NCBI GenBank assembly: GCA_004297545.1
Contig: SCTB01000026.1
Coordinates: forward strand, 10,207-74,206
From: Alphaproteobacteria bacterium
GTDB lineage: Bacteria; Pseudomonadota; Alphaproteobacteria; Micavibrionales; UBA2020
Reading direction: 5' to 3'
DNA: 64,000 nt
Shown here: positions 5,008 through 44,510 of the stretch, piece after piece
Layout of the letters: the number at the start of each line of letters is the position of its first letter
How positions within the stretch are numbered: position 1 is the stretch's first letter
The notes under the pieces: model-generated
Databases searched by the model: none
What the model was told of the DNA's origin: nothing
Seen by the model: the letters and a program-made list of their open reading frames with translations, nothing else
Program-made: the position numbers and the translations under genes

Positions 5008-5874
5008 CTATTCCTGCGCGGCGCCGGGCGCCTCTTCCTCTCCGGCCTCATCGGGCTTGGGCGGTTCAAAGGCCTTGTCACGCTTCGTCTTGGCGTCCAG
5101 CATACGCTGGATTTTTTGCTGCCGGTCCTTGCAAAAACTGTAGCTATGGGAGCCTGGCGCGAAGGCGCCGCATACATCCCCGGCGGCGGGAAGGGGCTGC
5201 CCGGCCGGCAGCGCCGCGGCTTCCGCGGGCTTCACCCCCGGTTTCGTCTTCGGTTTCGGCGGCACAACCACGGGCTTCCATGCCGCGATACGCTCCTCCA
5301 GGTCCGCCTTTTGCCTGATATCGAGATGACCCTCGATTTCCTGCAGAAGGGAGAGAGACTCGCAGCGGGGCAGGCTCTTTTTATCAAGCTTCACGGACAA
5401 GACGATCCAGAAATAGGCCTCAGGCCAATCCGGCGGGATTCTGCGGCCGCCTGTGGCGTATAACTTGGCAAGAAGAAGTTGTGCTTTGGCGCTTCCCTGC
5501 TCCGCAGCCCTGCCAAGCCATTTTTTCGCTTCAGTATAATTCTGGTCGGGGCCGCCCTGCGGGCCAGTGCTGTGGCTCCAGAAATAGTCTGATCCCAGCT
5601 TGACCTGCGCTGCGACATTTCCTTCTTCGGCCTGTTCCCGGACAACCTCCGCTGACCCGATCACTTTCTCATCCTCCAGAATGCTGTTACACTTTACCTG
5701 CTCCTCAGGCGGCGAATCAGGAATAAGCCATGCCGGCGCGTGGGCTTTTACCCAGGCTGCCACTTTCGGCTGGCTACCTGTCTTTATCATCACGAAAATC
5801 ACGAAAATCCCGCCGAGAACGGCCAGCAGGATCGTCCATTTCGAGAGCCGAAATCTTCCGGAGAGAAATCGCAT
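5008..5874 (-). CDS. Sel1-like repeat membrane-anchored protein
   Basis: N-terminal TM; AEEGNVAAQVKLG, AAEQGSAKAQLLLAKLY, EAYFW repeats. Confidence 0.75.
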   Translation of the reverse strand: MRFLSGRFRLSKWTILLAVLGGIFVIFVMIKTGSQPKVAAWVKAHAPAWLIPDSPPEEQVKCNSILEDEKVIGSAEVVREQAEEGNVAAQVKLGSDYFWSHSTGPQGGPDQNYTEAKKWLGRAAEQGSAKAQLLLAKLYATGGRRIPPDWPEAYFWIVLSVKLDKKSLPRCESLSLLQEIEGHLDIRQKADLEERIAAWKPVVVPPKPKTKPGVKPAEAAALPAGQPLPAAGDVCGAFAPGSHSYSFCKDRQQKIQRMLDAKTKRDKAFEPPKPDEAGEEEAPGAAQE

Positions 5875-6166
5875 GCTATAACGCCATGTGTGATAATGTG
5901 TTTCTAAAGAATTGCCAGACAGTCCCCCAAAGGGGGCATGCCCGCGAACCCATTCCACCCCAATCTTGCCTGCATATCAATTTCAAATACTCGGAAGAGC
6001 GGACAAGGGCAAAGTCCGCCCGATTCGGGTTATGTCTAATAATAAAAGTCCCCGTCTATCAGCGTATTATCCGCCCCGCCCCCTCGAAAACCGCGCATTT
6101 GCTTGCTTTTCGTGCGGTTTGGTGCCACAGAAGGGCATGAGTTTTTCAACAAAAGGAAACACCCCG

Positions 6167-9917: not shown

Positions 9918-12404
9918 TCACGGCCGGGGCTTCGGCCCCTGCGCCGACGGCGGCGTCACGGGCTTGACGCCGGTGGTGGCGGGACTGTCGGGATGCGCCG
10001 CATCCCAGTCCTTCAGTTCCTTCTTGTACATCTGCAGTTCCTGCATCGCGCCGGCGAGGTCCGCGCGTTCCATCTGCGCCATGGCGATTTTGTCGAGCGT
10101 GTCGCCGCCATGCGCCATCCACTTGGGCAGCACGTTGTCGAGGAAACTGGAATTCGTTGTCAGGATTTCATCCTGCTTTTTGATGCCGGCCTGCAGCACG
10201 CGCTCCAGCTCCGCAATGTTCTTCGGGTCGCGCAGGTCGATTTTCTTGAAATCGCCGATCTTGAACCGTCCGCGCGCATCGCGCTCCAGGGCGCCCGTGC
10301 CGTTCATATTCTCGTTCTTCATGTTTTCGGAATGGTTCCGCAGCGCTGTCGCGATATGCTGGTACCCCAGCACCGAAGGCTTGCCGTCGTCCGCCTTGTA
10401 TCCCTCGCGCTTCTGGGCCGCGCCGTTCTGCGCAATCTGGTCGTCGACATCATCCCAGGCGCGCTTGGCCTTCAGCGCGGCATCTCCGGTGATGGCGACG
10501 GCTGTCACCGCGGCCACAGTCAAAACGACAGGGGCGGCCGCGACCGTGATAGCGGCAGCCCCAGTGCCGGCGACGCCGGTGCCGAGCGCTCCCGTGACCA
10601 CCGTGGTGATGGCGGCGGCCTCGCCGGTCGAGGCGGCGGCGGTGCCCAGCAGAATGCCCGTCGTGGCCGTCGTAGCCGCGACGGCCCCCCGCTCGACCTT
10701 GTGCTGCGTCGTGTCTTCCTTGCTGATCTGGTAAGCAACGTCGACCGCCGTGACCGCGATGTTGACGACCGGCAGGAACTTACCGGCGCTGGTCAGGGCC
10801 GGGATGGTCTTTCCGGCGGCGGCGGCGATGCCTTCGGTCGCCTGCATGGCCGACGTTACGATGTTCGTTCCCGCGATGGCGCCGCCCACCGTGTCGCCGC
10901 GCTCGATGGCGCTCTTCAGGCCAATGCCGCCCATCACGAGGCCGATGGAGGCGGCCCCCGCGTTGCCGATGCCGCTGGCCCGCGCGGCGTCGATATTCAG
11001 CGCCGGGATGCCCTTTTTCGCGGCCAGCTGTTCGGTGATGCTGTTCAGCGTCTCGGGCGCCGCGATCCATTCCGGGTGCGCGCCGGATTCCGCGGCGATC
11101 CATTTAAAGCGCGGGTCCTCGAAATACCCCTTGGGCGACACGTCGCCGCGGTTGCGCTCGAGATAAAAATTGATGTCGGGCGCATTGAAGCCCGACGACA
11201 CGCCGAAGATGGCGTGGTTCACCTCGACGAGGTTCGCGCGGTCGAGTTTCACGTCCTTCAGCGCCGGATTGAGCTCCACAAGATGGTCCCAGGTCTGCCG
11301 GTAGAACTGGCCGACTTCGGAAGGGGCGGTGTTGAGCACGTCAAGCGTCAGCTTCGGCGACAGGGGCTGCGGCGGGATGAACCCCTTCTCCACCAGCGCC
11401 GGCGGCGGCACCGTTCGGTCGTTCAGGAACTGCCAGTGGAAATGGTCCTCGAATTGCGCGGCGTTCATGCCATCCGGCAGCGTATATTCGCCCGCGATGC
11501 CCTTCAGGCCGGTCTGGATCTCGAACTGCCGGGCGGGCTGATGGCTGACGATTGCCCTCTCCTCGGGCGACAACAGCGACATATTGACGCAGCCGTTCAG
11601 GTCGCAGGCGTAGACACTGTGGGGGCCGGGTTTCTGCTGCTGCAGGTATTCCTGCATCGTCTGCTCTGCATTCGCCGTGGTCGCGGGCGTCGTCCGGGTG
11701 CCGGGCGCGTAGTCCCCGTCATGCACCGGCAGCTGCTCGTTCAGGCCGCGCACGGAAACGCGCTCCGGCGGCGCCTTCATCATGTCGCCCCACCGCTGCA
11801 ATGTCGCGGGACCGTCGAACATGGAGGGGTCCATCACCATCTGCTGCACCGTGCCGTCCGGCATCTCGACGGGCAGCGTGGGCGCTACGTGATACCACCA
11901 TCTGGTCTTCGCCCCGTTCCGCGCCTGGATCAGCAGCGTCCCGTGATCGCCTTCAAACCCCCAGGCCTTCGAGGGCGTCTGCCCCATTTCGATGAGCCGC
12001 GTGGCCATAAGGTGCGCGCGCGCATAGCAGCCGTCCTTGGCGAAACCGAAAGCAATGTCCGGCATCGCGGCCAGCCGCTCAAAAATCTGCTGCGCCTGCG
12101 CGGGCGTCACCGGCTTTGGCGCCAGTTCAGGGAAAAAGGGCTGGGGTGGCGGCGGGGGCGGATTCTCCTCAGCGTAGTACCGCCCCGTTTGAGGTGGCGC
12201 GAAGCGGCTCACTTCATTTGTGCGCTGCGGCGCCAGGCCGCCGCTGGGGGGCTGGAGTATGGCTCCGTCGCTGAGCGGCTGCAGCCTGAATTCGGATGGC
12301 GGCAGGACGGGCAGATTCGGTTTGTTGGGCCCCACAACCGGCGTTTGCTCCGACGGGGGCGGAACAACTGGCTTCTTTCCACTATCCTGCGGCTGGTCGG
12401 GCAT
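9918..12404 (-). CDS. Multidomain putative effector/toxin: Pro-rich N-terminus, protein-glutaminase domain, unknown middle domain, Ala/Gly/Thr hydrophobic region
   Basis: DGCYARAHLM (C126), WWYHVAP (H172), VMDPSMF (D192) match protein-glutamine glutaminase motifs. Confidence 0.8.
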   Translation of the reverse strand: MPDQPQDSGKKPVVPPPSEQTPVVGPNKPNLPVLPPSEFRLQPLSDGAILQPPSGGLAPQRTNEVSRFAPPQTGRYYAEENPPPPPPQPFFPELAPKPVTPAQAQQIFERLAAMPDIAFGFAKDGCYARAHLMATRLIEMGQTPSKAWGFEGDHGTLLIQARNGAKTRWWYHVAPTLPVEMPDGTVQQMVMDPSMFDGPATLQRWGDMMKAPPERVSVRGLNEQLPVHDGDYAPGTRTTPATTANAEQTMQEYLQQQKPGPHSVYACDLNGCVNMSLLSPEERAIVSHQPARQFEIQTGLKGIAGEYTLPDGMNAAQFEDHFHWQFLNDRTVPPPALVEKGFIPPQPLSPKLTLDVLNTAPSEVGQFYRQTWDHLVELNPALKDVKLDRANLVEVNHAIFGVSSGFNAPDINFYLERNRGDVSPKGYFEDPRFKWIAAESGAHPEWIAAPETLNSITEQLAAKKGIPALNIDAARASGIGNAGAASIGLVMGGIGLKSAIERGDTVGGAIAGTNIVTSAMQATEGIAAAAGKTIPALTSAGKFLPVVNIAVTAVDVAYQISKEDTTQHKVERGAVAATTATTGILLGTAAASTGEAAAITTVVTGALGTGVAGTGAAAITVAAAPVVLTVAAVTAVAITGDAALKAKRAWDDVDDQIAQNGAAQKREGYKADDGKPSVLGYQHIATALRNHSENMKNENMNGTGALERDARGRFKIGDFKKIDLRDPKNIAELERVLQAGIKKQDEILTTNSSFLDNVLPKWMAHGGDTLDKIAMAQMERADLAGAMQELQMYKKELKDWDAAHPDSPATTGVKPVTPPSAQGPKPRP

Positions 12405-15458: not shown

Positions 15459-15473
15459 TTAAACCCCGGTTAA
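15459..15473. promoter_or_regulatory. CtrA-type box TTAA-N7-TTAA
   Basis: ttaa accccgg ttaa, 45 bp upstream of the cadherin-like gene. Confidence 0.6.
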
Positions 15474-15517: not shown

Positions 15518-18500
15518 ATGGCAGACGGCATTGCACCATTTGCCCCGACGCCTGTTGTCCGTAGCGCTTTTGCGGGGGGAACGCAAAAGACCGCACCGTC
15601 CGTGCTGGATCTCGGCTCATACTATCTGACCCGAAATCCGCGCGCGGAATCACTTGCGCGCGTGTTTTCCCGCCCCTCCTCCGGTGACGTCTTCGCGAAT
15701 GTCGAGGGTTTCCTTGCGGCGGCTTCCGCGGCAGACCAGAATTTCAGCGCGGAACAGGGGAGCGCGGCCGCGAAGAATTCCGCGAATGCCGCCTACGCCG
15801 CCGCGCTCGACCTCCTCGCCAAACGCGAGACGCCGGCCGAAAAATATCTCCGGCAACTGCTGGAGGCGCCTCCGCCCAAGGCAGCGCCGCCGCTGGCAGC
15901 CGCCCCTGCCACGCTGAAGCTCGCGACGAACGCGGCGGGTGAGCTAGAGGAAGGCTCCTTCCTGACGATCACGTCTTCGCAATTGTCCGCCACGGCGGAT
16001 AGCGCCGTGAACAACAACATCAGATACAACGTCACCGGCGGCCCGGTGAACGGGTACCTGACGCTGGCGGGCGACCCGGGCGCGGCCCTCGTTTCCTTTA
16101 CGCAGGCGCAGGTCAACGCGGGGCTTGTGCGCTATGTCCATAACGGCACGGATACGGCGTCGGACAGTTTCAGCTTCACCGTCAACGCCGGGGCGGAAAG
16201 CCTGAAGGGAAGCTTCCTGCTGGCGATAACGCCTTCCGACGATGCGCCGGAGCTTGTCGCGAATACCGGGGCTGCGCTGGATGAAGGCGATTCCGTGGTG
16301 CTGACGACCGCGCAGCTGAATGCGACGGACGTGGATACGATTAACAGCAATCTTGTATATACCGTCACTTCCGGCCCGGCGCACGGGCGGCTGGAGCTGA
16401 CCACGGACCCCGGGACGGCGATCACCTCCTTCACGCAGTCGGAACTTGCCGCAGGACGCCTGCGCTATGTGAACGACGGGTCAGAATTCGCCGCCGACAG
16501 CTTTACCTTCACGCTTTCCGACGAAACGACCGCGCTGGCGCCGGCCACGTTCAATTTCACGATCAGCCCGGTCGACGACGCGCCGGTGCTGACCAACGCA
16601 GGCGCCTCCGTCACCGAAGGCGATACGCTGACCCTCGACACCGGGGCGCTGGGCGCGACCGACGCCGACACGGGCGACAGCAGCCTGGTCTTTACCGTCA
16701 CCTCGGGGCCCGCGGCCGGCTACCTGCAGCTGTCGACAGACCCCGGCACGGCGATCACGTCTTTCACGCAGGCAGACCTCGCTCTCGGCATCGTGCAGTA
16801 TGTGCATGACGGTTCTGAAACCACGGCGGACAGCTTCGGTTTTTCGCTCACCGACGGCACCACCACGATCAATGATACATTCAATATAACTGTCGTTCCC
16901 GAAGACGACGCGCCGCAGCTGACGAATAACGGCCTGACGGTGACGGAAGATTCCTCGGCGATCATCACCACCGCGGACCTCACCGCAGCAGATCCGGATA
17001 CGGCGGACAGTGACCTGGTCTATTCCCTCTCCTCCCTGCCCGTGAACGGGTATCTTGAACTCACGACGAATGCGGGTGTTTCCATCACCTCCTTCACGCA
17101 GTCCGACCTTGCCGCCGGCATCGTCAATTACGTGCACGACGGCTCCGAAACCACGGCGGACAGTTTCATCTTCACGCTTTCCGATCAGACGACGACGCTT
17201 TCCGCTGCGACGTTCAATATCACCATCGACCCTGCGGACGATCCGCCGCAACTGACCAACAACGGCCTGTCGGTTTCCGAGGGCGGCACAATCGCGCTCA
17301 CCACCGCGGACCTGAATGCGAGTGACGCCGATACGGCGGATGCCGGGCTTGTCTATACCCTGACCTCCGCGCCCGTGAACGGACAACTGGAGCTTTCGAC
17401 CAATCCGGGCGCCGCCATCATCTCCTTCACGCAGGCCGATTTGGCCGCGGGCCTTGTGCAATACGTGCATGACGGTTCGGAAACGACGGCGGACAGCTTC
17501 AGCTTCGACCTGACGGACGGCACGACCACGCTGCCCGGCAATACATTCAATATCTCTGTCGCCGCCGTGGACGATGCGCCCGCGCTGGCGACCAATACCG
17601 GCGCGACGGTGACCGAGGGGGCTTCCGCCCTCATCGGCTCCGCGCAGCTCAGCGCCACCGATGCGGATACGGCAAGCGCGAACCTCGTCTATACAGTCAC
17701 CACCGCGCCCGCCGCCGGTTACCTGGAGCTGACCACGAACGCGGGCGTCGCGATTACCTCCTTCACGCAGGCCGATCTTGACGCGGGTATCGTCAATTAT
17801 GTCCACGACGGATCAGAGGCTTCGGCGGACAGCTTTACCTTCACGCTTTCCGACGGGACGACGACGCTGGGCGCCTCCAATTTCAATATCACGGTCAGCC
17901 CCGTCGATGACGCGCCGCAACTGACGAACAACGGCGCGATCGTCACCGAGGGGAATTCCGCGATTCTCACGACGGCGGAACTTGACTCTTCGGACCCGGA
18001 CACGGCGAATACGAGCCTTGTCTATACCGTCACCTCCGCGCCCGTGAACGGATACCTGGAGCTGACCACGAACGCGGGCGTCGCCATCACGTCATTCACG
18101 CAGGCCGACCTTGACGCCGGGATCGTGAACTACGTCCATAACGGTTCGGAGGCGACGACGGACAGCTTTGCCTTCAGCCTGTCCGACGGCACGACGACGC
18201 TGCCGGGTAATACATTTAATATTACCGTCACCCCGGTCGACGACGCTCCCGTGCTGGCGACGAATGCGCCCGCCGCGCTGAATGAGGGCGCGACCGTAAC
18301 TGTCACGACAGCGAACCTGAACGTGACGGATGTGGATACGGCGAATTTCAACCTGACCTATACGCTGACCTCCAATCCCTCGAACGGATACCTGCAGTAC
18401 AGCACCAGCCCCGGCACGGCGATCACGTCGTTCACGCAGGCGGATCTGGAGGCGGGGCTCGTAGAATATGTGCATGACGGCTCTGAGACGACATCGGACA

Positions 18501-18913
18501 GCTTTACCTTTATCGTCTCCGACCTCACGACGACGCTCTCCGCCTCGACCTTCGCCATCAGCGTCAACCCGGTCGACGACGCGCCCGTGCTGACCACGAA
18601 CACGGGAACGACCGTCAGCATCTTTGGCGGTTCCACAATCATCACGACATCGAAACTGAGCGCTTCGGACGTCGATACCGCGCCTTCCAGCATCGTGTTC
18701 AGCCTCACGGCATCCCCGACGCAGGGGCGTCTTGAACTGACGACCAACCCCGGCGCCGCCATCACCTCGTTCACACAGGCCGACATCGACGCAGGGCGGC
18801 TGCGTTATGTGCACACGGCCTTCAACTTCAACCCTGACAGCTTCACATTCACCGTCACCGACGGGACGACGACGCTTTCACCGGCTACTTTCAATATCAC
18901 CGTGACGTTCTGA
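15518..18913 (+). CDS. Large cadherin-like (CSPG-type) repeat protein, putative adhesin
   Basis: Nine ~110-aa repeats with SFTQADL...YVHDGSE..DSF.F...DG...FNI.V.PVDDAP. Confidence 0.85.
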   Translation: MADGIAPFAPTPVVRSAFAGGTQKTAPSVLDLGSYYLTRNPRAESLARVFSRPSSGDVFANVEGFLAAASAADQNFSAEQGSAAAKNSANAAYAAALDLLAKRETPAEKYLRQLLEAPPPKAAPPLAAAPATLKLATNAAGELEEGSFLTITSSQLSATADSAVNNNIRYNVTGGPVNGYLTLAGDPGAALVSFTQAQVNAGLVRYVHNGTDTASDSFSFTVNAGAESLKGSFLLAITPSDDAPELVANTGAALDEGDSVVLTTAQLNATDVDTINSNLVYTVTSGPAHGRLELTTDPGTAITSFTQSELAAGRLRYVNDGSEFAADSFTFTLSDETTALAPATFNFTISPVDDAPVLTNAGASVTEGDTLTLDTGALGATDADTGDSSLVFTVTSGPAAGYLQLSTDPGTAITSFTQADLALGIVQYVHDGSETTADSFGFSLTDGTTTINDTFNITVVPEDDAPQLTNNGLTVTEDSSAIITTADLTAADPDTADSDLVYSLSSLPVNGYLELTTNAGVSITSFTQSDLAAGIVNYVHDGSETTADSFIFTLSDQTTTLSAATFNITIDPADDPPQLTNNGLSVSEGGTIALTTADLNASDADTADAGLVYTLTSAPVNGQLELSTNPGAAIISFTQADLAAGLVQYVHDGSETTADSFSFDLTDGTTTLPGNTFNISVAAVDDAPALATNTGATVTEGASALIGSAQLSATDADTASANLVYTVTTAPAAGYLELTTNAGVAITSFTQADLDAGIVNYVHDGSEASADSFTFTLSDGTTTLGASNFNITVSPVDDAPQLTNNGAIVTEGNSAILTTAELDSSDPDTANTSLVYTVTSAPVNGYLELTTNAGVAITSFTQADLDAGIVNYVHNGSEATTDSFAFSLSDGTTTLPGNTFNITVTPVDDAPVLATNAPAALNEGATVTVTTANLNVTDVDTANFNLTYTLTSNPSNGYLQYSTSPGTAITSFTQADLEAGLVEYVHDGSETTSDSFTFIVSDLTTTLSASTFAISVNPVDDAPVLTTNTGTTVSIFGGSTIITTSKLSASDVDTAPSSIVFSLTASPTQGRLELTTNPGAAITSFTQADIDAGRLRYVHTAFNFNPDSFTFTVTDGTTTLSPATFNITVTF

Positions 18914-21319: not shown

Positions 21320-22396
21320 TCAGACCGGGGCCGCCTGCACAAGACCGATATCATCCGCTCCCGTCGCCAGCATGACGAGTCTGTCGACGCCCAGGGCATT
21401 GCCGCTGCAGGCAGGCAGGCCGAATTCGAGGGCCTTTAAAAAATCTTCATCCACCGGGTAGTCGTCGCCGTAAACCTTTTTGCGCAGGCGCACATCGGCA
21501 AGAAAGCGTTCCCGCTGCACCGCCGCATCGGTCAGTTCGCCGAAAGCATTGGCAAGCTCGATGCCGCAAACGTAAACCTCGAAGCGCTCCGCGAAGCGTC
21601 CGTCTTCCGGCTTGGGGCGGGACAGCGCGGCCATCGAGACGGGATAGTCGTAAATGATAGAGGGCGCGGGAGAGCCGAGGCGCGGCTCGACCTTTTCCAT
21701 GAGAATTTTCAGCAGCGCGTTTTCCCAGTCGTCATGCGGCGAGACGTAGACGTCGATGCGTCTGGCTTCCGCGCGGATATGCGCGAGGTCGCAGAGATTG
21801 TTCGAAATATCCACGCCCGCGTATTTCTTCAGTGCGTCCACGACGGTGATTTTCTCCCACGGCTGATGCGGATCGCAAAACTTACCGTCATTCCCGCGAA
21901 AGCGGGAATCTCCCGCAACGAAAGCTGCCCCCCGCTCTTCGGCACGGGATCCCCGCTTTCGCGGGGATGACGACGCGGCGATATGCCGCACCAGATCTGC
22001 CGTTTCCTCCATCATATCCTTGTAGTCCATGCCGCGCTGGTACCATTCCAGCATCGTGAATTCCGGCGAGTGCCACGACGAGCCTTCCGCGTTGCGGAAA
22101 ACCTTCGCGAGCTGGTAGATTTTCGGCAGGCCGGCGACGAGAAGCTTTTTCATCGCGAATTCGGGGCTCGTATGCAGGTACATCGTGCGCTTCGACTGGC
22201 GGTCGGCGCTCAAAAGCTCCGTGCGGAAGCCCTGGATATGCGCCTCCATGCAGGGCGCCGTCTGCAGCGCCGGCGTATCGACCTCAAGATATCCGCGCGC
22301 GTCGAAAAAGGCGCGTATCTCGCCAAAGATGCGCGCGCGCTCCTGAAGGTAGGGAACTTTCCTCATGAAACGATCGGGATGCCACCAGGGATTCAT
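21320..22396 (-). CDS. epmA: EF-P lysine aminoacylase (EpmA/GenX), with in-frame repeat insertion
   Basis: YLHTSPEFAMKKLL, FRNAE..HSPEFTMLEWY, ERFEVY, ELANAFGEL, LGVDRL. Confidence 0.95.
   Translation of the reverse strand: MNPWWHPDRFMRKVPYLQERARIFGEIRAFFDARGYLEVDTPALQTAPCMEAHIQGFRTELLSADRQSKRTMYLHTSPEFAMKKLLVAGLPKIYQLAKVFRNAEGSSWHSPEFTMLEWYQRGMDYKDMMEETADLVRHIAASSSPRKRGSRAEERGAAFVAGDSRFRGNDGKFCDPHQPWEKITVVDALKKYAGVDISNNLCDLAHIRAEARRIDVYVSPHDDWENALLKILMEKVEPRLGSPAPSIIYDYPVSMAALSRPKPEDGRFAERFEVYVCGIELANAFGELTDAAVQRERFLADVRLRKKVYGDDYPVDEDFLKALEFGLPACSGNALGVDRLVMLATGADDIGLVQAAPV
21886..21972. repeat. 87-bp palindromic repeat inserted in frame in epmA
   Basis: cgtcattcccgcgaaagcgggaatc...gatccccgctttcgcggggatgacg; similar to intergenic 34007-34106. 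Confidence 0.85.
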
Positions 22397-23031
22397 GGGT
22401 GCTTCAGTTTTAGCGACTGCCCCTTCGCCCTGTCGTGCAGGCGGCGCTGTTTCATGACGGGCGTATTCAGCATTTTTTCCACGGCGGCGCTGGCCTTTTC
22501 CGCGGAAGAGGCGCGCGCGATGTCAAGCGCCGAAAGCCCGGCGTTGTCGGGAACGGCAGGGTCCGCGCCCTTGGCCGCCAGCATCTCGAACGGCGTCTTG
22601 TCGATATCCTCGCGGCCCTCCAGAAACAGGGGGAGGGAAAGATGCAGCGGCGTCTCGCCCGTGCGCGGGTCGGGGGTGTTCAGCGCCAAACCCTCCTGCA
22701 GCAGCATGACGGAGACCAGCATCGCATCGCGTTTTTCGAAACCGTAATGCAGCGGCGTGACGCCCGCATTGTCGGCCAGCCCCGCATCCGCGCCCGCATG
22801 CTGCAGCGCAAAGAACTGGGCCCAGAGGCTGCCTTCCTGCTTCCTGCCGTCCTCCGTCGAAACCTTGTCGAGGATCGTGAACAACAGATTGCGCCCGGTT
22901 GCGGGGTCGCGCACGTTCGGGTCGGCGCCTTTGTCCAGCGCCTCCTTGAGGCCGACGATGTCGCTTTTTTCCACGGCCTTGACGAGCGCGCGGTCGTGGA
23001 CGGGACTGCTGAATGTCTTTTTCGGCGTCAT
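22393..23031 (-). CDS. Ankyrin repeat protein
   Basis: LDKGADPN, GVTPLH, GETPLH, KGADP..DNAGLSALDIA; ATGA overlaps with both neighbours. Confidence 0.85.
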   Translation of the reverse strand: MTPKKTFSSPVHDRALVKAVEKSDIVGLKEALDKGADPNVRDPATGRNLLFTILDKVSTEDGRKQEGSLWAQFFALQHAGADAGLADNAGVTPLHYGFEKRDAMLVSVMLLQEGLALNTPDPRTGETPLHLSLPLFLEGREDIDKTPFEMLAAKGADPAVPDNAGLSALDIARASSAEKASAAVEKMLNTPVMKQRRLHDRAKGQSLKLKHP

Positions 23032-23681
23032 GACGGTTTCGGCGCAAGCTTCAGCCGGATAGGCTTTATCGCCATGGCTTCCGGAAGGCCCTCGCGCAGG
23101 GCCTCGCACATGTCGGCCGAAGCCTGCTTCATCTGCTGCTCGAAAATATAGGCCGGGTCGTGGGTGCGGATGTATTCTTTCATCGCCGCCACGATTTCGC
23201 CCGCGAAGGGCCATTGTATCGCGTATTCCCTGCCGCGCTGCATCACATCGAGGCCGCCCCCGCCCTTGCGCGTCACCTCAGCGCCTTTTTCCAGCAGCCA
23301 GATCACGCGGTCCGTCTTTTTCTCGTCCATATCCATGTTGAAGGCCCAGTGCAGCGGCGTCTGCTGCTGCCGCCCGGAAACCGTGTTGATATCCGCGCCG
23401 TTCTCCAGCAGCAGCGCCGCGATGCTGAAATGCTTGTTTTCCAGCGCCGCGATGAGCGGCGTCTCGCCCTCGTCGTCTTCCAGGTTCACGTCGGCGTTCT
23501 TTTCAATCAGCAGCTTCACGATGTCTTCGCGGCCCGCATAGGCCGCATGATAGAGGGCGGAGCGGTTCATGCTGTCGGCCGTATCGGGATCGACGCGGGC
23601 TGCAAGCTCGGCACGCACGGCTTCGATGTCGCCGTCGCGGGCGGCGTCGATGATCGGTTCTTCGCAGGGCACAATCGTCAT
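23028..23681 (-). CDS. Ankyrin repeat protein
   Basis: SALYHAA, GETPLIAA, LLENGADIN, QTPLHWA. Confidence 0.88.
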   Translation of the reverse strand: MTIVPCEEPIIDAARDGDIEAVRAELAARVDPDTADSMNRSALYHAAYAGREDIVKLLIEKNADVNLEDDEGETPLIAALENKHFSIAALLLENGADINTVSGRQQQTPLHWAFNMDMDEKKTDRVIWLLEKGAEVTRKGGGGLDVMQRGREYAIQWPFAGEIVAAMKEYIRTHDPAYIFEQQMKQASADMCEALREGLPEAMAIKPIRLKLAPKPS

Positions 23682-23793
23682 GAGAAACCTTGTCTTAAAG
23701 CTGCAATTGTATAGCAATTATATTCCATAATGTCAATGGGCGCCCCGACGCCCGGATATTGCCATAACGCCAATTACATAGTATGGTCCGCCC

Positions 23794-24528
23794 ATGAAAG
23801 GATCACACCCGATGCCCACCCGCGAGCTTCCCCGGCTTGTCGAAGAAGCGCTGCATGACATGGCGGCATGCGATGCCGGCGAAACGATGGCCGGTTTCGT
23901 GCGCGAACGGCTGCCGCTGCTGAAAAAGCAGGCGCGCTCCCGCAACGAGGCGATCGTCAACCGCGGCGAACTCGCGATCGTTATCACCGGCGACGCGGCG
24001 GGGCGCCTTGCGCTCGCCTCCGCCTATGCGCAGGCGCTCCACGGATTTGAGATCACCGCGGGCCGCGACGACGCGGAATCTACCGTGCTGAAAACCGTGC
24101 AATGGCGCAACATCATCGCGGACGAGCAGGGCAACCCGCTGCCTTTCCGCAAAGCCAGCGACAAACTCTATTCCGCGAAAAGCGACGCCGAAGGCGGCGT
24201 GCTGGTCATCGAAAACATCTACGACCTGCCGCCGAACGCCGCGAATGAAAACGCCGTCGCGCAGGCGCAGAACGGCGCGTTCCAGATGCTTGCCGACCTT
24301 CTCACGGAGTATGCGGAGCGCGATTACACGCCGGTCATCGTGCTGACGGGCGAGGCGGATAAAATGCAGCGGTTCCTGGCGGAGCGCCGCGGCGGCGCGG
24401 CCTATTTCACGAACCCCGTCCTCACCGCGACCGCCGCGGCTCCCCCGCCGGCGCCCGATGTTCCCGCCGCGACGATGTCGGACGTCACGGTCACCCGGCC
24501 GCTGAAGCTGAAGAAGCCGGGCCTTTAG
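23794..24528 (+). CDS. Degenerate CbbX/SpoVK-like AAA-fold protein (paralogue of 27781-28497)
   Basis: LAIVITG, YAQALHG, AEGGVLVIENIY, PVIVLTGEADKMQRFL; no Walker A GKT. Confidence 0.6.
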   Translation: MKGSHPMPTRELPRLVEEALHDMAACDAGETMAGFVRERLPLLKKQARSRNEAIVNRGELAIVITGDAAGRLALASAYAQALHGFEITAGRDDAESTVLKTVQWRNIIADEQGNPLPFRKASDKLYSAKSDAEGGVLVIENIYDLPPNAANENAVAQAQNGAFQMLADLLTEYAERDYTPVIVLTGEADKMQRFLAERRGGAAYFTNPVLTATAAAPPPAPDVPAATMSDVTVTRPLKLKKPGL

Positions 24529-24548: not shown

Positions 24549-24977
24549 ATGGGCGCACAGCAGGATAGGGACGAGAGGGCGGAGCGTGTTCACGCGTTTG
24601 AATCCGCCGTGATGGGGAACGACGTCGCGACAGCAAGGAAATTGCTGGAGAGCGGGTTCATATACGAGAAGTACAGCTGGCCGCGGACCTCATACGAACA
24701 TATCCTGAAGGACGTCGTGTATCGCGGAAACGCGCAGATGTATTCGCTGCTGAAGCAGCATGGCATCGATTTTCGTTACCTGGAGAGCGATGCCAGATAC
24801 CAGTTGAAACTGGAGGTCGTCGATAGAGACGTCAAATTTTCCGCCCTGCAGGAAGAGCTGAGAGAAACAAAAGCGGAAGTGACCGCGCTGCGCGATCTCG
24901 TCACCGGCCTGTCGCAGAAACTGGAAGAACTGGACGGCCCGAAACTGGACAAGCCGCGCCCTTCGCTGAAACGCTGA
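24549..24977 (+). CDS. Hypothetical protein with degenerate ankyrin-like helices and coiled coil
   Basis: AVMGNDVATARKLLESG; heptad C-terminus; tail PKLDKPRPSLKR. Confidence 0.6.
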   Translation: MGAQQDRDERAERVHAFESAVMGNDVATARKLLESGFIYEKYSWPRTSYEHILKDVVYRGNAQMYSLLKQHGIDFRYLESDARYQLKLEVVDRDVKFSALQEELRETKAEVTALRDLVTGLSQKLEELDGPKLDKPRPSLKR

Positions 24978-25018
24978 AAAGCGCCGCAGACGCCGGATTC
25001 ATTTGAGAAAACCGTCGC

Positions 25019-25034
25019 TTAAACGAACATTAAC
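25019..25034 (+). promoter_or_regulatory. CtrA consensus box TTAA-N7-TTAAC
   Basis: ttaa acgaaca ttaac, followed by TATAAT ~12 bp downstream. Confidence 0.65.
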
Positions 25035-25094
25035 GCCTGCCGCGGTATAATGGGGCTTACAGCATGAGTTCCGACATAGAACGAGGATTCAGCT

Positions 25095-25802
25095 TTGTCA
25101 GGCACAGAAGAAAATATGCCGGCCATGGATGGCCCGGCCGCTCCATTTAGCGCTGAGCGCAAGCCCGGGTGGAAATCGCCTTGGTTTTTCATCTTCGCCG
25201 CAGCCGCCGCGGCCATTTTCATTTATGACGCGGCCCTCTACGACAAGATCCACTCGCCCCCGCCGCCGCCCCAGCCCGTCGTTTTCAGCAGCATGCGCCA
25301 CAGCGTCATTCAGGCCTCCAGCGGATTCCAGGCCCTGGTGGCCACGGTTTGCTGGATCTTGGGCGCCGGAATCCTGCTGAGCGGCAGCTTCAAGGTGTTC
25401 GGCGCATGGCGGCGCCGGAAGAGGGATCCCGCCCCTGTCCCGCGCGGCGAAAAAGCCCTGCTTTACCTGCTTCTTGGTGTCGGCCTGATGGCGTATCCCT
25501 TCGTGTATGAGAATTTCCGGCAGTCTTACGGTTATTACGAGGCCTATTACCACCCTTATTACGGCTACACGCAGGAGAAACCCAACACCGCAAACTTTAG
25601 AACTTTCGCTTTCTACAGCTTGTACTTCGGCACGATTGCGTTTCTCTTTGGCAGCTTCGCGCTGAAAAAGGCGCAGCGCCTGAAGGACGACCCGGCGGCG
25701 CCCGCGCTGAAGGACAAGGCCGCGTTCCGCTTTACGGCGGGATTCATTATGACCGCGCTGCCCTTCGCCTGCGCGTCGTTTATGGGGGTGGATCTGTGGT
25801 AA
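25095..25802 (+). CDS. Multi-TM protein, tandem paralogue 1 (IcmD/DotP-like units)
   Basis: ASSGFQALVATVCWILG; KAQRLKDDPAA; ends GVDLW; ATG at 25116 is an alternative start. Confidence 0.7.
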   Translation: MSGTEENMPAMDGPAAPFSAERKPGWKSPWFFIFAAAAAAIFIYDAALYDKIHSPPPPPQPVVFSSMRHSVIQASSGFQALVATVCWILGAGILLSGSFKVFGAWRRRKRDPAPVPRGEKALLYLLLGVGLMAYPFVYENFRQSYGYYEAYYHPYYGYTQEKPNTANFRTFAFYSLYFGTIAFLFGSFALKKAQRLKDDPAAPALKDKAAFRFTAGFIMTALPFACASFMGVDLW

Positions 25803-26488
25803 AGGAAACAGAGAAAATCATGGCCCCGGCCCCGCTCGCTGATAGTGCGCGCAAGCCCGGCTTGATATCTGTCCGGTCCGTGGTCTTCGTTATCGCCGCC
25901 GCCGCCGCCGCGGCGCATTTTATTTTAGATTCATATTGGAGCGAGCCGGCGCCGCCGCGAAAAGTAACCTTCCGTACCATAAACTCCGGCCAAATCGCTG
26001 CCGCCCACTCATTTCAGAACCTGACAGACACCATCTGCTGGATGTTCAGCGTCGGGTTTACGATCAGGGGCTGCGTCAGGCTGAATAAAGCCATGAAATA
26101 CCACTACGGCACACCGGAGTACGCCCGGCTCTGGAAACGCACCCGGCTATATTTCGTCCTGGGGATTTTCTTCATGACCTTCCCTTTCATTCGGGACGCG
26201 ATGCAGGGGCACATGATGTGCAACACGAACAGTCCTCACCCCTGCCCCGCCGACATAGCCCGGCAGCAGGATAGCCTGCAGCTGCTCGCCGTCGCCTTCT
26301 GGCACATCGGCGGGCTGGGCTTTTATTTCGGCAGCCTCGCTTTGGCCAAGGCGCAGCAGCTCAAAGACGACCCGGCAGCCGCCGCGCTGAAGAACGAGGC
26401 GGCGGGCTGCCTGCTGATCGGATTCATGACCCCCGCAGCCGCCATCGCCTGGGCGGGGTTTCAGGGGGTGGAATTGTGGTTCCCATGA
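25796..26488 (+). CDS. Multi-TM protein, tandem paralogue 2
   Basis: SFQNLTDTICW; KAQQLKDDPAAAALK; GVELW. Confidence 0.7.
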   Translation: MVKETEKIMAPAPLADSARKPGLISVRSVVFVIAAAAAAAHFILDSYWSEPAPPRKVTFRTINSGQIAAAHSFQNLTDTICWMFSVGFTIRGCVRLNKAMKYHYGTPEYARLWKRTRLYFVLGIFFMTFPFIRDAMQGHMMCNTNSPHPCPADIARQQDSLQLLAVAFWHIGGLGFYFGSLALAKAQQLKDDPAAAALKNEAAGCLLIGFMTPAAAIAWAGFQGVELWFP

Positions 26489-27093
26489 ACAAATTCAAGG
26501 TTTTTCTTCTGCCGTTTTTGTTGATATCGGCCTCTGCCGATGCAGGGACAACGTCGTTCCGGCGCATGAGCGAAAATGTCATCGTCGCCTCCAGCGGTTT
26601 TTCAAACCTTATTTCAACATTGTGCTGGCTGATCGGCATCGGATTTGCGATTTCCGGCTGCGTCAGGCTGTATAAGGCCTGGCGCCGCGGCAGGGACGCC
26701 CCGGACTTCCGCAGGCTGAAGGAAAAAGCGATGTTCAGGCTGTTCGTGGGCCTCGGCTTTTTCGCCTATCCCTTCGTGCAGCAGGCTTATACGCCTTCCT
26801 ACACTTACGGCGGCTACTACGGGAACCGCTATTATGGCAGCCCCTCTTACGGCTACGTCTATACGCCGCCGGGGCCGGAGGACCACATGAGGCTGCTCGC
26901 GGCAGTCTGCTGGTACTTCGCCATGATGGCGTTTTTATTCAGCAACCTCGCCCTCGCGAAAGCGCAGCAGCTCAAAGACGACCCGGCAGCCGCGGCGCTG
27001 AAGGACAAGGCCGCGTTCTGTCTGCTGACGGGATTCACCCTGACCGTCCTCCCTTTCGCCTGCGCATCGTTTCTGGGGGTGGAGTTGTGGTGA
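26485..27093 (+). CDS. Multi-TM protein, tandem paralogue 3
   Basis: Signal-like N-terminus; ASSGFSNLISTLCWLIG; KAQQLKDDPAAAALK; ATGA overlap. Confidence 0.7.
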   Translation: MNKFKVFLLPFLLISASADAGTTSFRRMSENVIVASSGFSNLISTLCWLIGIGFAISGCVRLYKAWRRGRDAPDFRRLKEKAMFRLFVGLGFFAYPFVQQAYTPSYTYGGYYGNRYYGSPSYGYVYTPPGPEDHMRLLAAVCWYFAMMAFLFSNLALAKAQQLKDDPAAAALKDKAAFCLLTGFTLTVLPFACASFLGVELW

Positions 27094-27719
27094 GGACAGC
27101 CGAAAAAATATTTATGCTGCTTCTCCTCGCCGTCTGCGCGATGTTCCTGGCCGTCGATATCAACAGCCAGCCCGTCGCGGCAGCTGAGGTTATCCGGAAC
27201 TACACCGGCTGCCAGAGCGGTTTGCCCGGCCTGATCAAAACGATGTGCTGGATTGTGGGCGGCGTCTTTTCGCTGGCCGGCGCGCGCAGCATCTACAGCA
27301 CCGTGATGCGCACATGGGATGAGCCCAGCCTGCCCGACCTGCCGAAGAGAACCTGGGTTTACTTCTTCCTGGCATTCGGCTTTACCATGCTGCCGACCAT
27401 GCTGGCGTTTTTTTCCATGCCGCATTGCCCCGTCCCGGTCGGAACTTACAACGGCATACCCTTAGGATTTCCCGGCGGCTGCATCAATGAGGTGACGCGG
27501 GCGGATTATTACCGGCTGCATCTCTCGTTCATCTTCGCTTACGGCGGCGCTCTGGGGTTTTATTTAAGCTATTTCGCGCTGTCCAAGGCGCTGCGCTTCC
27601 GCAACACCCCGGCAGAAGCTGCGCTGAACAGGGAAGCCGCCTTGCTGCTGCTGATGTCTTTCGTCATGGCATCCATTCCGTTTGTCTGGGCAATGGGGGT
27701 GGGGGTGGAGTTGCGGTAG
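27087..27719 (+). CDS. Multi-TM protein, tandem paralogue 4
   Basis: SGLPGLIKTMCWIVG; KALRFRNTPAEAAL; GVELR. Confidence 0.7.
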   Translation: MVRTAEKIFMLLLLAVCAMFLAVDINSQPVAAAEVIRNYTGCQSGLPGLIKTMCWIVGGVFSLAGARSIYSTVMRTWDEPSLPDLPKRTWVYFFLAFGFTMLPTMLAFFSMPHCPVPVGTYNGIPLGFPGGCINEVTRADYYRLHLSFIFAYGGALGFYLSYFALSKALRFRNTPAEAALNREAALLLLMSFVMASIPFVWAMGVGVELR

Positions 27720-27780
27720 ATATTATTTGACATAATAATATCAATCCTGTACTGTATTCCCCAGCAACCGGGGAACCCCC

Positions 27781-28497
27781 ATGATTATCGATGCCCAATT
27801 AATCGCCGAAGCGCTTCTGGATATCCGACCCTTTGACAAGGGCGGCGAAATGACTAAAAAAATCAATGATATGATGCAGATCGTCGAGGATGCAGAGGCC
27901 GCAGGTACCGGTCCTGTCGACCGCACCAGCCTTGCCATCGTTATCACCGGCGAGCCTCAGGCCTGCGAGGTCATGGCGCAGGCTTATACCAAGGCCCTGC
28001 ACGGCCATGGGCTGATCGCCGGGAAGTCCCTTTCCGACCCCCCGGCTCTGGAAAAAATCGACTGGCCTGGCGACTTCGAAGACTCCTTTATCAGCCGTCA
28101 GCTCCAGGAATATAACCACGCCTACAAGACGATAAACGAGGCAAAAGACCGCGCCGCGGGCGGCACGCTGGTCATCCCGGGCATCCATAAAATGCCCTAT
28201 GTCGGCTATGTCGACGAGGAAGATGCCGGCCCCAAGGCACTGAATGGCGCGCTCCGGGCCATTACCTCCTTTATGGCGGAGGGCGCCGGGAAAGAGCGCA
28301 CCCCCGTCGTCATCCTGACCGGCGAGGCGGAGCCGATGGCGGCATTTCTGGCGCAACAGCCTGAAATGCAAAAGCTTTTTGAGGGAAAAACCCTGGCCGT
28401 CTGCACGGAGGACCCCGCCTACTCCACGGAACTGAACGACCGCATCACCGTGCGCGGCCCCCTCAAGCTGAAATTGCGCTCCCCCTCATTTTCTTGA
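27781..28497 (+). CDS. Degenerate CbbX/SpoVK-like AAA-fold protein (paralogue of 23794-24528)
   Basis: LAIVITG, YTKALHG, AAGGTLVIPGIH, PVVILTGEAEPMAAFLAQQP. Confidence 0.6.
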   Translation: MIIDAQLIAEALLDIRPFDKGGEMTKKINDMMQIVEDAEAAGTGPVDRTSLAIVITGEPQACEVMAQAYTKALHGHGLIAGKSLSDPPALEKIDWPGDFEDSFISRQLQEYNHAYKTINEAKDRAAGGTLVIPGIHKMPYVGYVDEEDAGPKALNGALRAITSFMAEGAGKERTPVVILTGEAEPMAAFLAQQPEMQKLFEGKTLAVCTEDPAYSTELNDRITVRGPLKLKLRSPSFS

Positions 28498-42025: not shown

Positions 42026-43033
42026 GTGACGACACCGGACAAAAAATTCGATGTCGTCGCGATTGGCGCGGTCTGCGTGGATGCGCAGGTCATTGGCGAC
42101 GATGCGCTACTGGAGCGTTACAGCCTCACTAAAGCCGTCTCAAACGACATTGGCGCTGACGTGCTGAAATACGCGGCGGATGACGGCATGCCCAAAACCG
42201 CGGGCGGCCCGGCCACGAATATCGCGGCAGGCATCGCCCTGCGCGGCGGAAATGCGGCGCTTGTCGGAAAAGTCGCGGGCGACGATCTCGGCAGTTTCTT
42301 TTCCGCGCGCATGCAGTCCTTCGGCGTGGAATACACGGCGCTGCTGGCCGAGGACGCAGACAAGGGCACCACCTTCATCATGGTCGTCACCACGCCCGAC
42401 AAGGAGCGCACCTTCGCCTGCTATAACGGCGCGGGGCTGATGCTGTCGCCCGAGGACATCGACCGCAGCCTGATCCGCGAGGCAAAGATCACCTATCTCG
42501 ATTCATACCTCTGGCTCTCGGAAAACGGCCGCGAGGCGGTGCGCCATGCGGCCGAAACCGCCAAGCAGGAGGGCAGCCTCGTCGCCCTGTCGCTGAACGA
42601 TAGGCATATCGTCGAGAAAAACCGCGAGGCGTTTCTCTCCCTTGCGACATCGCATGCAGATATTCTGGTGGGCGATCAGAAAGAATTCGGCGCGCTTTTC
42701 GGCACCACGACTCTCGAAGAGACGAAGGATGCCGTTGCGAAACTGGGCGTCATCGCTTCCATCACCGCCGGCGCGAAGGGCGCCTATGTCATCGAGGACG
42801 GCGTGATGACCCATGTTCCCGCGGAAAAAATCGAGCATGTCGTCGATACCAGCGGCGCGGGCGACGCCTTCGCCGCCGGGTTCCTCTATGGCCTCTCGCA
42901 GGGCAAGACCGCGCCCGATGCAGCATCCATAGGCGCCTCTTGGGCGGCCGACATTATCCAGCATTTCGGCGCGGAACCGAAAATAGGGAAAAACGCCTCG
43001 CCGTCCGCGCCGGGCCGGAAGCATGCCCCTTAA
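42026..43033 (+). CDS. PfkB family (adenosine kinase-like) carbohydrate kinase
   Basis: GGPATN, GKVAGDDLG, DTSGAGDAFAAGF. Confidence 0.9.
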   Translation: MTTPDKKFDVVAIGAVCVDAQVIGDDALLERYSLTKAVSNDIGADVLKYAADDGMPKTAGGPATNIAAGIALRGGNAALVGKVAGDDLGSFFSARMQSFGVEYTALLAEDADKGTTFIMVVTTPDKERTFACYNGAGLMLSPEDIDRSLIREAKITYLDSYLWLSENGREAVRHAAETAKQEGSLVALSLNDRHIVEKNREAFLSLATSHADILVGDQKEFGALFGTTTLEETKDAVAKLGVIASITAGAKGAYVIEDGVMTHVPAEKIEHVVDTSGAGDAFAAGFLYGLSQGKTAPDAASIGASWAADIIQHFGAEPKIGKNASPSAPGRKHAP

Positions 43034-43044
43034 ACATAACTTAA
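43030..43044. promoter_or_regulatory. CtrA-type box TTAA-N7-TTAA upstream of nfeD
   Basis: ttaa acataac ttaa. Confidence 0.5.
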
Positions 43045-43136: not shown

Positions 43137-44510
43137 ATGAAAAAGACGCTTATCCGCATCTTCAGCGTATTCCTGTTCGTGACGGGCATCATGGCCTTTC
43201 AGGAAGCCATCGTGCGCGCGGAAAGCGACATCGACAAGCCTCTCGCCTATGTCGTCGAAATCAACGGAATCATCAGCCCCTCGACCTACGATCTTATCGA
43301 GCGCAACCTGCACAACGCCGAAAAGGCCCATGCCGATATCGTGGTCCTGCAGATGCAGACGCCGGGCGGGCTGTATGAAAGCACCCAGCAGATCATCCAG
43401 GGCATCCTGCAGAGCCCCGTGCCCGTCGCCACTTTCGTCTCGCCGCCGGGCTCTCGCGCCGCCAGCGCCGGCACCTATATTCTCTACGGCAGCCATATCG
43501 CCGCGATGGCGCCCTCCACGAATATCGGCGCCGCCACGCCCATCAACATGCTGGACGAGAACCGGCGTAAGTCCGACGACCCCGAAGCCGCAAAGCAGGC
43601 CGCGCAACCCCAGACGACGCTGGAGAAAAAGATCATCAACGACGCCGCCGCCTATATCCGCGGCCTCGCCGTGCGCTATGACCGCAACGGCGAATGGGCG
43701 GAAAAGGCCGTGCGCGACGCTGATTCCATCAACGCGGACGAGGCCCTTGCCAAAAAAGCCATCGAAGTCATCGCCAACGACGTGCCGGACCTGCTGAACA
43801 AGATCGATGGCCGCACCGTGAAGATGGCGAACGACAAGACGATGAAGCTGCGCACGAAAGGCGCGAAAATCGTCGACATCAAGCCCGACTGGCGCACGGC
43901 GCTGCTCGACGTCATTGCCAACCCGAACATCGCCTTCCTGCTGATGTCGCTCGGCACCTACGGCCTGATTTACGAATGCGTGCATCCCGGCGCCATCGCG
44001 CCCGGAGTCATCGGCGCGATCTGCCTGCTGCTGGGCCTGTTCGCGATGAATGTGCTGCCGATCAACTACGCCGGCCTGTCGCTGATGGTGCTGGGCATCG
44101 CCCTGATGGCGGGCGAGGCCTTTGCGCCCAGTTTCGGGGCGCTCGGCATCGGCGGCGCGGTATCTTTTGCAGTGGGGGCAACCATGCTGATTGATTCTTC
44201 CGATCCAAGCTACGCCATCGACCCGTGGATGATCGCGGGCGTGACGCTGGCGAGCGTGGCGTTCCTCTCCGTGCTTCTGGCCGTCGCCATCCGCGCGCAG
44301 CGCCGCCCGACGGTGACCGGCATCGAGGAGATCAAGGCCGCCGTCGCCGAAGTGATCGACTGGAGCCAGGGACAGGGACAGGTGCGCGTGACCGGCGAGA
44401 TCTGGATGGCGCGCGCGGCTTCGGCCGACTTCATCATCAACACGGGCGACAAGGTGAAGGTCGTCGATATCGACGGGCTGAAGCTGATCGTCAAGCCCCA
44501 CACGGCTTAG
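43137..44510 (+). CDS. nfeD: NfeD family membrane-bound serine protease
   Basis: TPGG, AASAG, NIGAATP ClpP-like domain; TM region; C-terminal OB fold (GEIWMAR). Confidence 0.92.
   Translation: MKKTLIRIFSVFLFVTGIMAFQEAIVRAESDIDKPLAYVVEINGIISPSTYDLIERNLHNAEKAHADIVVLQMQTPGGLYESTQQIIQGILQSPVPVATFVSPPGSRAASAGTYILYGSHIAAMAPSTNIGAATPINMLDENRRKSDDPEAAKQAAQPQTTLEKKIINDAAAYIRGLAVRYDRNGEWAEKAVRDADSINADEALAKKAIEVIANDVPDLLNKIDGRTVKMANDKTMKLRTKGAKIVDIKPDWRTALLDVIANPNIAFLLMSLGTYGLIYECVHPGAIAPGVIGAICLLLGLFAMNVLPINYAGLSLMVLGIALMAGEAFAPSFGALGIGGAVSFAVGATMLIDSSDPSYAIDPWMIAGVTLASVAFLSVLLAVAIRAQRRPTVTGIEEIKAAVAEVIDWSQGQGQVRVTGEIWMARAASADFIINTGDKVKVVDIDGLKLIVKPHTA

Follow-up and report, generated by a model that had tools for sequence, protein, structure and literature searches.

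Tandem genes for doubled, fast-diverging IcmD/DotP-like proteins in a Micavibrio-like bacterium with a predicted type IVB secretion machine

We analysed a 64,000-nucleotide (nt) stretch of the genome of an uncultured Micavibrio-like bacterium (contig SCTB01000026.1 of assembly GCA_004297545.1, positions 10,207 to 74,206), called here the window. Four overlapping open reading frames (ORFs) on its + strand, g1 to g4, extend from 25095 to 27719 and are referred to below as the array. Judging from sequence and profile comparisons, the array consists of fast-diverging doubled copies of IcmD/DotP, and the same genome also carries a Dot/Icm-type type IVB secretion machine. The source genome comprises 3.86 Mb in 197 contigs, with a contamination estimate of 7.9%. 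An initial annotation, made from the letters of the window, had already likened the array proteins to IcmD/DotP or to pilins, and we checked its claims together with our own analysis.

Relation of the array proteins to IcmD/DotP

The initial annotation had proposed that the genome be checked for dot/icm genes. The models of IcmL, IcmK/DotH, IcmG, IcmJ and DotA all found matches. A cluster on contig C94 begins with IcmL/DotI (NF038072, 180.5 bits at a cut-off of 175), a second IcmL-like gene and IcmK/DotH (PF12293, E 7e-71). It continues with a gene for 451 amino acids (aa), IcmG/DotF (E 1.5e-8, below the cut-off), a 314-aa TraQ/DUF6750-like protein and a 137-aa protein, and it ends with IcmJ/DotN (E 1.4e-26; 93.3 bits at a cut-off of 100), followed by a 1028-aa gene. 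The 314-aa protein is IcmC-like: an IcmD-like unit forms its beginning, and it has matches to TraQ and DUF6750. Since the 137-aa gene lies between this icmC-like gene and icmJ, its position matches the Legionella order icmG-icmC-icmD-icmJ-icmB (PMC6761968). DotA/TraY is found on contig C188, and the DotA model matched one frame at E<=0.001. By its gene content, the source genome has a Dot/Icm type IVB machine.

Each array protein contains two hydrophobic hairpin units. The N-terminal half of g3 matched the 137-aa IcmD-like protein in BLASTP (39% over 96 aa, E 2e-20), and the C-terminal half, which holds unit 2, gave a weak match to the same region (E 0.002). In hhalign against the IcmD-like profile, unit 1 reached 99.6% (E 3e-24) and unit 2 reached 92.7% (E 4e-7). 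To name the 137-aa family we used a sample of 401 genomes of the phylum; IcmJ was found in six of them, and in four its score (315-344 bits) exceeded the cut-off by far. The profile A4, built from ten IcmD-like proteins with a single hairpin, matches the gene immediately upstream of icmJ in four of four distant genomes (E 5e-17, 4e-14, 1e-15 and 7e-15), with weaker matches at the icmC position and in further paralogues. The 129-aa gene of one distant genome has many close relatives named IcmD, both by JGI ("intracellular multiplication protein IcmD") and by NCBI ("type IV secretion protein IcmD [Legionellales bacterium]"). In profile-profile comparison, A4 matches the source-named IcmD (A7) at 99.1% (E 5e-19), and the array profile (A2) matches A4 at 99.4% (E 6e-22), while A2 against A7 directly gives 12.6% (E 0.002), which is not significant. 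Thus, the homology between the array and IcmD is transitive; as far as profiles can tell it is real and passes through the IcmD-like proteins of the lineage. The proposed likeness to IcmD/DotP stands by this route, and it does not stand as a direct match to named IcmD. A protein language-model search, taken as a lead only, placed the 137-aa protein at 0.95 and g3 at 0.84 to a cluster named "IcmD family". Cluster look-ups for names found 20 of 20 proteins, none of them named IcmD, and tblastn of the IcmD-like protein against plasmids gave no match.

The array proteins share with IcmD/DotP a short periplasmic N-terminal part, a transmembrane (TM) helix, a basic turn with D-x-P and a second TM helix; g3 also has a signal peptide, as IcmD does. 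They differ in having two hairpins in 205-235 aa, whereas IcmD is a single hairpin of about 130 aa. They also form four tandem copies outside the icmG-C-D-J-B operon, not between icmC and icmJ, and their turn 1 has lost the K-x-K-x-H-x-D-N-P signature. Because of the doubling, the position outside the cluster and the lost signature, we rejected the array genes as icmD orthologues. They are built of IcmD-type hairpin units in a Dot/Icm-bearing genome, which places them in the IcmC/IcmD/DotV superfamily. IcmC/DotE (TraQ of IncI1 plasmids) and DotV resemble them as multi-hairpin proteins of the IcmD superfamily, and DotV, like the array, is encoded away from the main operon. Recombination and positive selection have been reported for Legionella DotV (PMC6761968). 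Unlike IcmC/DotE, the array proteins lack the TraQ-like C-terminal part and do not match DUF6750. DotV was not identified in any genome examined.

Two other genes of the source genome carry the single hairpin. A second, nearly identical copy of the 137-aa gene lies outside the cluster (C180:7913-8179, -), adjoining an ankyrin-like ORF; given the contamination estimate of the assembly, it may come from a co-assembled strain. On contig C195 (L008:1489-2340, +), a 283-aa protein has an N-terminal IcmD-type hairpin fused to an AhpC/TSA domain (PF00578, E 5e-39).

Organization of the array and of its proteins

The first gene, g1 (25095-25802, +; 235 aa), starts with TTG. The other three start with GTG: g2 (25796-26488, +; 230 aa), g3 (26476-27093, +; 205 aa) and g4 (27087-27719, +; 210 aa). 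The public gene call begins g2 at ATG 25820, giving 222 aa (P0008), and the alternative ATG of g3 at 26485 would give 202 aa. Neighbouring genes overlap by 7 nt (g1/g2), 13 nt (g2/g3; 4 nt with the start at 26485) and 7 nt (g3/g4), so that each downstream GTG sits inside the last codons of the preceding gene. A GGGGGT sequence stands 6 nt 5' of every downstream GTG (25784-25789, 26464-26469 and 27075-27080) and is encoded within the codons of the common G-V-(D/E)-L-W C-terminus. All four proteins end with GV(D/E)L(W/R); in g4 the overlapping GTG is changed to GCG, and the protein therefore ends with GVELR. The identity of g2-g4 to g1 is 29-48%, with 26 columns invariant across the four, and the third-position GC content (GC3) of 0.76-0.77 is similar to that of the surrounding genes. 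The initial annotation had described four overlapping paralogues, all with this type of ending, whose G-rich DNA takes the position of the next ribosome-binding site. Both descriptions agree with the ORFs, overlaps, identities and spacing found here. The best explanation of this arrangement is that the four genes form one translationally coupled operon.

The proteins follow a common plan, in which a signal or anchor at the N-terminus is followed by hairpin 1, then by a loop of some 25-45 residues, and last by hairpin 2. In g1, an N-in anchor and a Pro-rich spacer precede hairpin 1, a Tyr-rich loop and hairpin 2. The plan of g2 is the same, with a Cys pair in the central loop; in both, the N-terminus is charged at first and is followed by one hydrophobic helix and the proline-rich spacer. 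A classical signal peptide ending ASADA opens g3, whose two hairpins flank a loop rich in Tyr and Gly, as is that of g1. The most diverged copy, g4, again has a Cys pair in the loop. The AlphaFold (AF2) model of g1 (pLDDT 62) has helices at 29-52, 72-110, 117-144, 165-195 and 202-230. Hydropathy agrees with it in placing hairpin 1 at 72-110/117-144 and hairpin 2 at 165-195/202-230, which bears out the claim of two hydrophobic hairpin units per protein. According to hhalign, which aligned unit 2 with unit 1 at 96.4% (E 1e-9), hairpin 2 repeats hairpin 1 in diverged form.

Of the two motifs given in the initial annotation, SG[FL]..L..T.CW..G is present in all four proteins, and KAQ.LKDDPAA.ALK in three; it is absent from g4, where this version has diverged to KALRFRNTPAEAALN. 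The mean pairwise identity among the four proteins is 0.17 in the N-terminus, 0.29 in unit 1, 0.15 in the loop and 0.49 in unit 2. Thus, the central loop, Tyr-rich in the first and third proteins and with a Cys pair in the second and fourth, is the least conserved part, and its description as hypervariable was correct. The turn and helix motifs are conserved among 16 family members. Turn 2 has the sequence K-A-Q-Q-L-K-D-D-P, and turn 1 reads ..WRRGRDAP... By the positive-inside rule, both turns are predicted to be cytoplasmic, and the N-terminal part, the central loop and the C-terminus periplasmic. This topology is supported by the distribution of K/R residues in g3 (nine in turn 1 versus two in the central loop) and by the Cys pairs in the loop.

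Promoter region and CtrA-type boxes

The CtrA box claimed upstream of the array is present: a TTAA-N7-TTAA sequence occupies 25019-25033 (+), and its second half-site is at the position expected of a -35 element. A perfect TATAAT -10 hexamer (25046-25051, +), conserved in a relative (G013), stands 12 nt after the box. A GAGGA Shine-Dalgarno (SD) sequence (25083-25087, +) is located 7 nt before the TTG of g1. G013 has the identical stretch AACGAGGATTCAGCT(T/A)TG, with ATG as its start codon. A consensus promoter scan gave no row for the array promoter because there is no -35 match, and its terminator-like rows were at shuffle level. The Rfam scan of 24900-27900 gave nothing meaningful.

There are 3 TTAA-N7-TTAA sites in the window (0.21 expected) and 98 in the genome, where a first-order model predicts about 13. 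According to crude gene calls, by which 79% of the genome is coding, 96 of the 98 fall between genes; several are grouped in triplets with 11-bp phasing. The icmC-like gene has one of the sites 203 nt upstream. The genome encodes the CtrA equivalog (404.7 bits, cut-off 350). The CtrA gene together with the genome-wide box signal makes CtrA control of the array plausible; its promoter is probably CtrA-activated, and the boxes suggest co-regulation of the array with the Dot/Icm machine. From the claim of cell-cycle regulation, therefore, the regulator gene and the box signal can be confirmed, and the control itself has the standing of a plausible prediction.

The two further boxes of the window are at 15459-15473 and 43030-43044; one is 45 nt upstream of a gene for a 1131-aa cadherin-repeat protein (15518-18913), and the other is upstream of an NfeD-like gene (43137-44510). 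The region in front of the array also recurs as a cassette, in which the CtrA-type box, the -10 hexamer, a leader (GCATGAGTTCC...), the SD sequence and an M-S-G-T-E start head different or truncated small membrane ORFs. We located it in the window (25019-25110), on contigs C3 (about 2367, -) and C166 (about 2876, -) and at the loci L033, L086 and L087 of G013. The cassette has no match in Rfam.

Distribution and divergence of the array genes

The double-hairpin family is rare. When 5.8 billion clusters were searched by word index, 8 proteins came up, two of which are the window's own. The profile search of 1.84 billion representatives gave 66 clusters at E<=0.001, 15 at <=1e-10 and 9 at <=1e-30; among the weaker matches are long proteins in which the IcmD-like unit occurs three or four times. 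Orthologues with 77-81% identity occur in other samples. Among 41 genomes of the order, 29 were matched by g3. The same-genus matches cover unit 1 only and correspond to single-hairpin genes adjoining icmJ, of which some genomes have two or three in tandem. When a 16-sequence profile was run on 41 genomes of the family, 38 were matched, and only the four array genes span both hairpins. IcmJ was detected in 39 of the 41 genomes of the order and in 22 of the 24 family genomes tested with its model. Pattern scans with the array alignment confirmed nothing in genome contigs and a single 1.7-kb locus in metagenome contigs. Dot/Icm-type systems have been described in seven marine Micavibrionales genomes (PMC9418006). 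Our literature search found no paper treating both Micavibrio* and the type IVB secretion system (T4BSS).

The array lies on contig C103 between epmA-like/ankyrin genes and ffh. The syntenic locus, from the epmA-like gene to ffh, contains an ankyrin gene only in G002 and G010, and an ankyrin gene with a homologue of the 238-aa flanking gene described below in G014. In G013 it contains one 201-aa gene behind the same promoter. The box, TATAAT, leader and SD sequence of G013 are nearly identical to those of the array (79% column identity in the alignment), and the protein itself is barely recognisable (hhalign 83%, E 9e-6, 22% identity). G013 has short relics with the same leader and M-S-G-T-E start at two further places, and others lie on contigs C3 and C166 of the source genome.

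The initial annotation had also pointed to identical DNA patches between genes 2/3 and 1/3. These proved to be 32 nt in g2/g3 (26351-26382 = 26962-26993) and 24 nt in g1/g3 (25704-25727 = 26995-27018). In 2000 codon-usage simulations, the 32-nt run was reached 1 time and the 24-nt run 14 times. Where residues are identical, their codons agree only modestly more often than codon usage predicts (for example, 51 against 38.9 in g2/g3). The simplest account of these sequences is that the genes would be old paralogues with local gene conversion.

Possible function of the array

In the reading that we prefer, and to which we give about even chances, the array proteins would serve the type IVB machine as accessory or alternative subunits in the inner membrane, and their periplasmic loops would vary from one to the next. 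The four genes would be cotranscribed from a CtrA-activated promoter and translationally coupled. Each product would run from an export signal through a TM helix, a basic cytoplasmic turn and another TM helix to the variable periplasmic loop, and then through a TM helix, the K-A-Q-x-L-K-D-D-P turn and a last TM helix to a periplasmic GV(E/D)LW end. The genes may have originated as a lineage-specific offshoot of the IcmC/IcmD/DotV superfamily that was internally duplicated and then tandemly amplified. Their products would pack into the inner-membrane part of the genome's own Dot/Icm machine, and the four differing loops would give the machine variant faces. The comparisons described above establish the gene structure, the paralogy, the homology to the IcmD family, the presence of the machine and the promoter motif with its conservation; from these we infer the assembly of the array proteins into the machine. 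Two further observations were counted in favour of this reading. In G013 the promoter, box and SD sequence were kept while the protein diverged to 22%, and the genes around the array carry a candidate export motif, several of these genes encoding ankyrin proteins.

A number of results weigh against it. None of the four proteins scored above the cut-off of any Pfam or NCBIfam model, the direct comparison with named IcmD was not significant, and in five distant genomes the array profile matched one paralogue (E 2e-4). The array is on contig C103, outside the secretion cluster, and the icmC-icmD-icmJ set is on C94. No full-length array gene was found in the 40 other genomes of the family, where no match went past model position 170 of 210. 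Since relatives that carry IcmJ do not have the array, the machine does not need it. Relatives do not conserve the CtrA-type boxes at their icmD/icmJ loci: in the 30 loci compared, only two genomes (G009 and G029) show boxes, at a different position. Among sequencing runs, the array was found in one, probably from the source sample, and in no RNA run listed. The peroxiredoxin anchored by a single IcmD-type hairpin on contig C195 also belongs here.

This last gene, the distance of the array from the dot/icm cluster and the machine-bearing relatives without the array would equally fit membrane proteins unrelated to secretion. The IcmD-type hairpin would then be a generic two-helix module, and the proteins would have an envelope function of their own, for example an HdeD/DUF308-like role in stress or that of a Tyr-rich periplasmic scaffold. 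We regard this as clearly less probable, at something like one chance among several. In its favour, g1 is near the Pfam cut-off for DUF308 (E 5.7e-5, 23.7 bits against 25), and the Atlas structure search ranked an HdeD family cluster first, with a TM score of only 0.30. However, a bona fide IcmC of a distant genome shows the same weak DUF308 match (E 0.004), so the match reflects the hairpin and not a separate family. The IcmD-like protein is matched more strongly by orders of magnitude (E 2e-20), and the flanking genes appear to resemble export substrates. We did not assign the array to HdeD/DUF308 (PF03729): g1 remained below the cut-off, g3 gave E 0.044, and g2 and g4 did not match.

Pilin-like subunits of the VirB2/TrbC type were the other comparison made in the initial annotation. 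Here the hairpins would be extracted from the membrane and would polymerise to form a conduit or fibre, with the linker facing outward and contacting prey or host. The build is similar: a signal peptide, a two-helix hydrophobic hairpin, a basic turn and both ends outside, that is, periplasmic, and a tandem of two units would place the variable linker on the outer face. Faint matches were obtained for g3 to TrbC/VirB2 (PF04956, E 0.41) and DUF4134 (E 0.11), for the IcmD-like protein to Maff2 (E 0.011-0.025), and for the IcmC-like protein to the Mbov_0395 pilin-like model (E 9e-4). One IcmD relative has a precomputed PF04956 match, and an Atlas cluster near the IcmD-like protein was automatically named VirB2. 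Nevertheless, none of the matches to the VirB2-like families is significant, and the array differs from VirB2/TrbC in lacking any significant sequence or fold match to them. Foldseek comparison of the g1 model and the IcmD-like model (pLDDT 62 and 69) with the PDB gave no match at E<=0.001; with the latter model the Agrobacterium T-pilus ranked 23rd (E 4.3), in the company of ATP synthase c subunits and further hairpins. A profile search of all PDB sequences found nothing, and no pilin in particular. DotE, DotP and DotV are described in an in situ study as almost wholly within the inner membrane (10.1101/312009). Apparently, any helical hairpin would resemble pilins as well as these do, and we consider a pilin role improbable. 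Nothing in our comparisons supported the proposed role in contact with prey or host; by the predicted topology, the variable loop of these inner-membrane proteins would be periplasmic.

It might also be supposed that the genes are decaying or selectively neutral duplicates without present function. The fast divergence, the short relics that share the promoter and the MSGTE start and the barely recognisable syntenic copy in G013 are what such decay would leave. Yet all four frames are open with gene-like GC3, orthologues keep 77-81% identity in other samples, the promoter, SD sequence and overlapping starts are kept, and the turn and helix motifs are conserved across the 16 family members. We think that neutral decay is very improbable. 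A bolder version of the preferred reading would make the products interchangeable double-hairpin channel subunits, timed by CtrA, whose loops set the target cell or envelope. IcmD-type proteins would then be the missing type IVB equivalent of a pilin or conduit, and a P-L-(K/R)-L-K tail found in neighbouring proteins would be the effector export signal. We mention it as a long shot.

If the array does serve the machine, it touches its least understood parts. DotE, DotP and DotV are required inner-membrane proteins, which one in situ structure report leaves unplaced (10.1101/312009), and DotB does not localise properly in mutants without inner-membrane proteins including DotE (PMC9302130). Neither a later paper on the in situ structure nor a preprint with an integrative model mentions DotE, DotP or DotV. 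A lineage in which the IcmD module has been doubled, multiplied and diversified reveals where it is constrained (the helices and the turn) and where it is free to vary (the periplasmic loop), and the array offers a non-pathogen setting for asking what IcmD-type proteins do. The CtrA-type regulon and the C-terminal motif described below, shared by at least 26 proteins, several of them ankyrin proteins, are handles on the use of type IVB secretion in this uncultured Micavibrio-like group.

Flanking genes and a shared C-terminal motif

Two paralogous genes flank the array: 23794-24528 (+), encoding a 244-aa protein of no known family that ends ..RPLKLKKPGL, and 27781-28497 (+), encoding a 238-aa protein that ends ..GPLKLKLRSPSFS and has a homologue at the same locus in G014. 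Their products are 31% identical (E 2e-28) and matched no Pfam or NCBIfam family. By eye, their blocks ..IVITG.., ..GG.LVI.. and ..PV(I/V)(V/I)LTGEA.. recall what we take to be a degenerate AAA+ ATPase core. Two ankyrin-repeat genes on the - strand, 22393-23214 and 23028-23717 (Ank_2, E 8e-30 and 6e-5), encode proteins ending ..SLKLKHP and ..IRLKLAPKPS.

The products of five genes flanking the array, among them the four above, have a C-terminal (P/S)-(L/I)-(K/R)-L-K motif; in 24549-24977 (+) it is weaker. The motif, also seen in G014, usually has the form (I/V)-x-V-x-(K/R/S)-P-L-(K/R)-L-K with a short tail. Genome-wide, where the ORF counts rest on crude gene calls, 26 of 3113 ORFs have the strict form P-[LIVMF]-[KR]-L-K among their last 16 residues, against 0.19 expected from the internal frequency. 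The reversed motif occurs in none; a looser form is carried by 51 ORFs, compared with 6 when internal windows were drawn at random. We scanned 20 of the 26 motif proteins and found 6 with ankyrin repeats, 1 with a Macro domain and 13 without a family. It is possible that the motif is an effector export signal, plausibly for the type IVB system. The array proteins themselves end with GVELW and lack the P-L-K-L-K tail, and we rejected them as export substrates.

An element of about 85 nt at about 21883-21974 lies in or beside the epmA-like gene (21320-22396, -). In G001, G010 and G013, genomes of the same genus, dozens of places on either strand match this element, which is a dispersed palindromic repeat. 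Two more genes of the window are of host-interaction type: one for a Sel1-repeat protein (5011-5958, -), and one for an 828-aa protein with Gln_deamidase_2 (PF18626, E 1e-23; 9921-12404, -).

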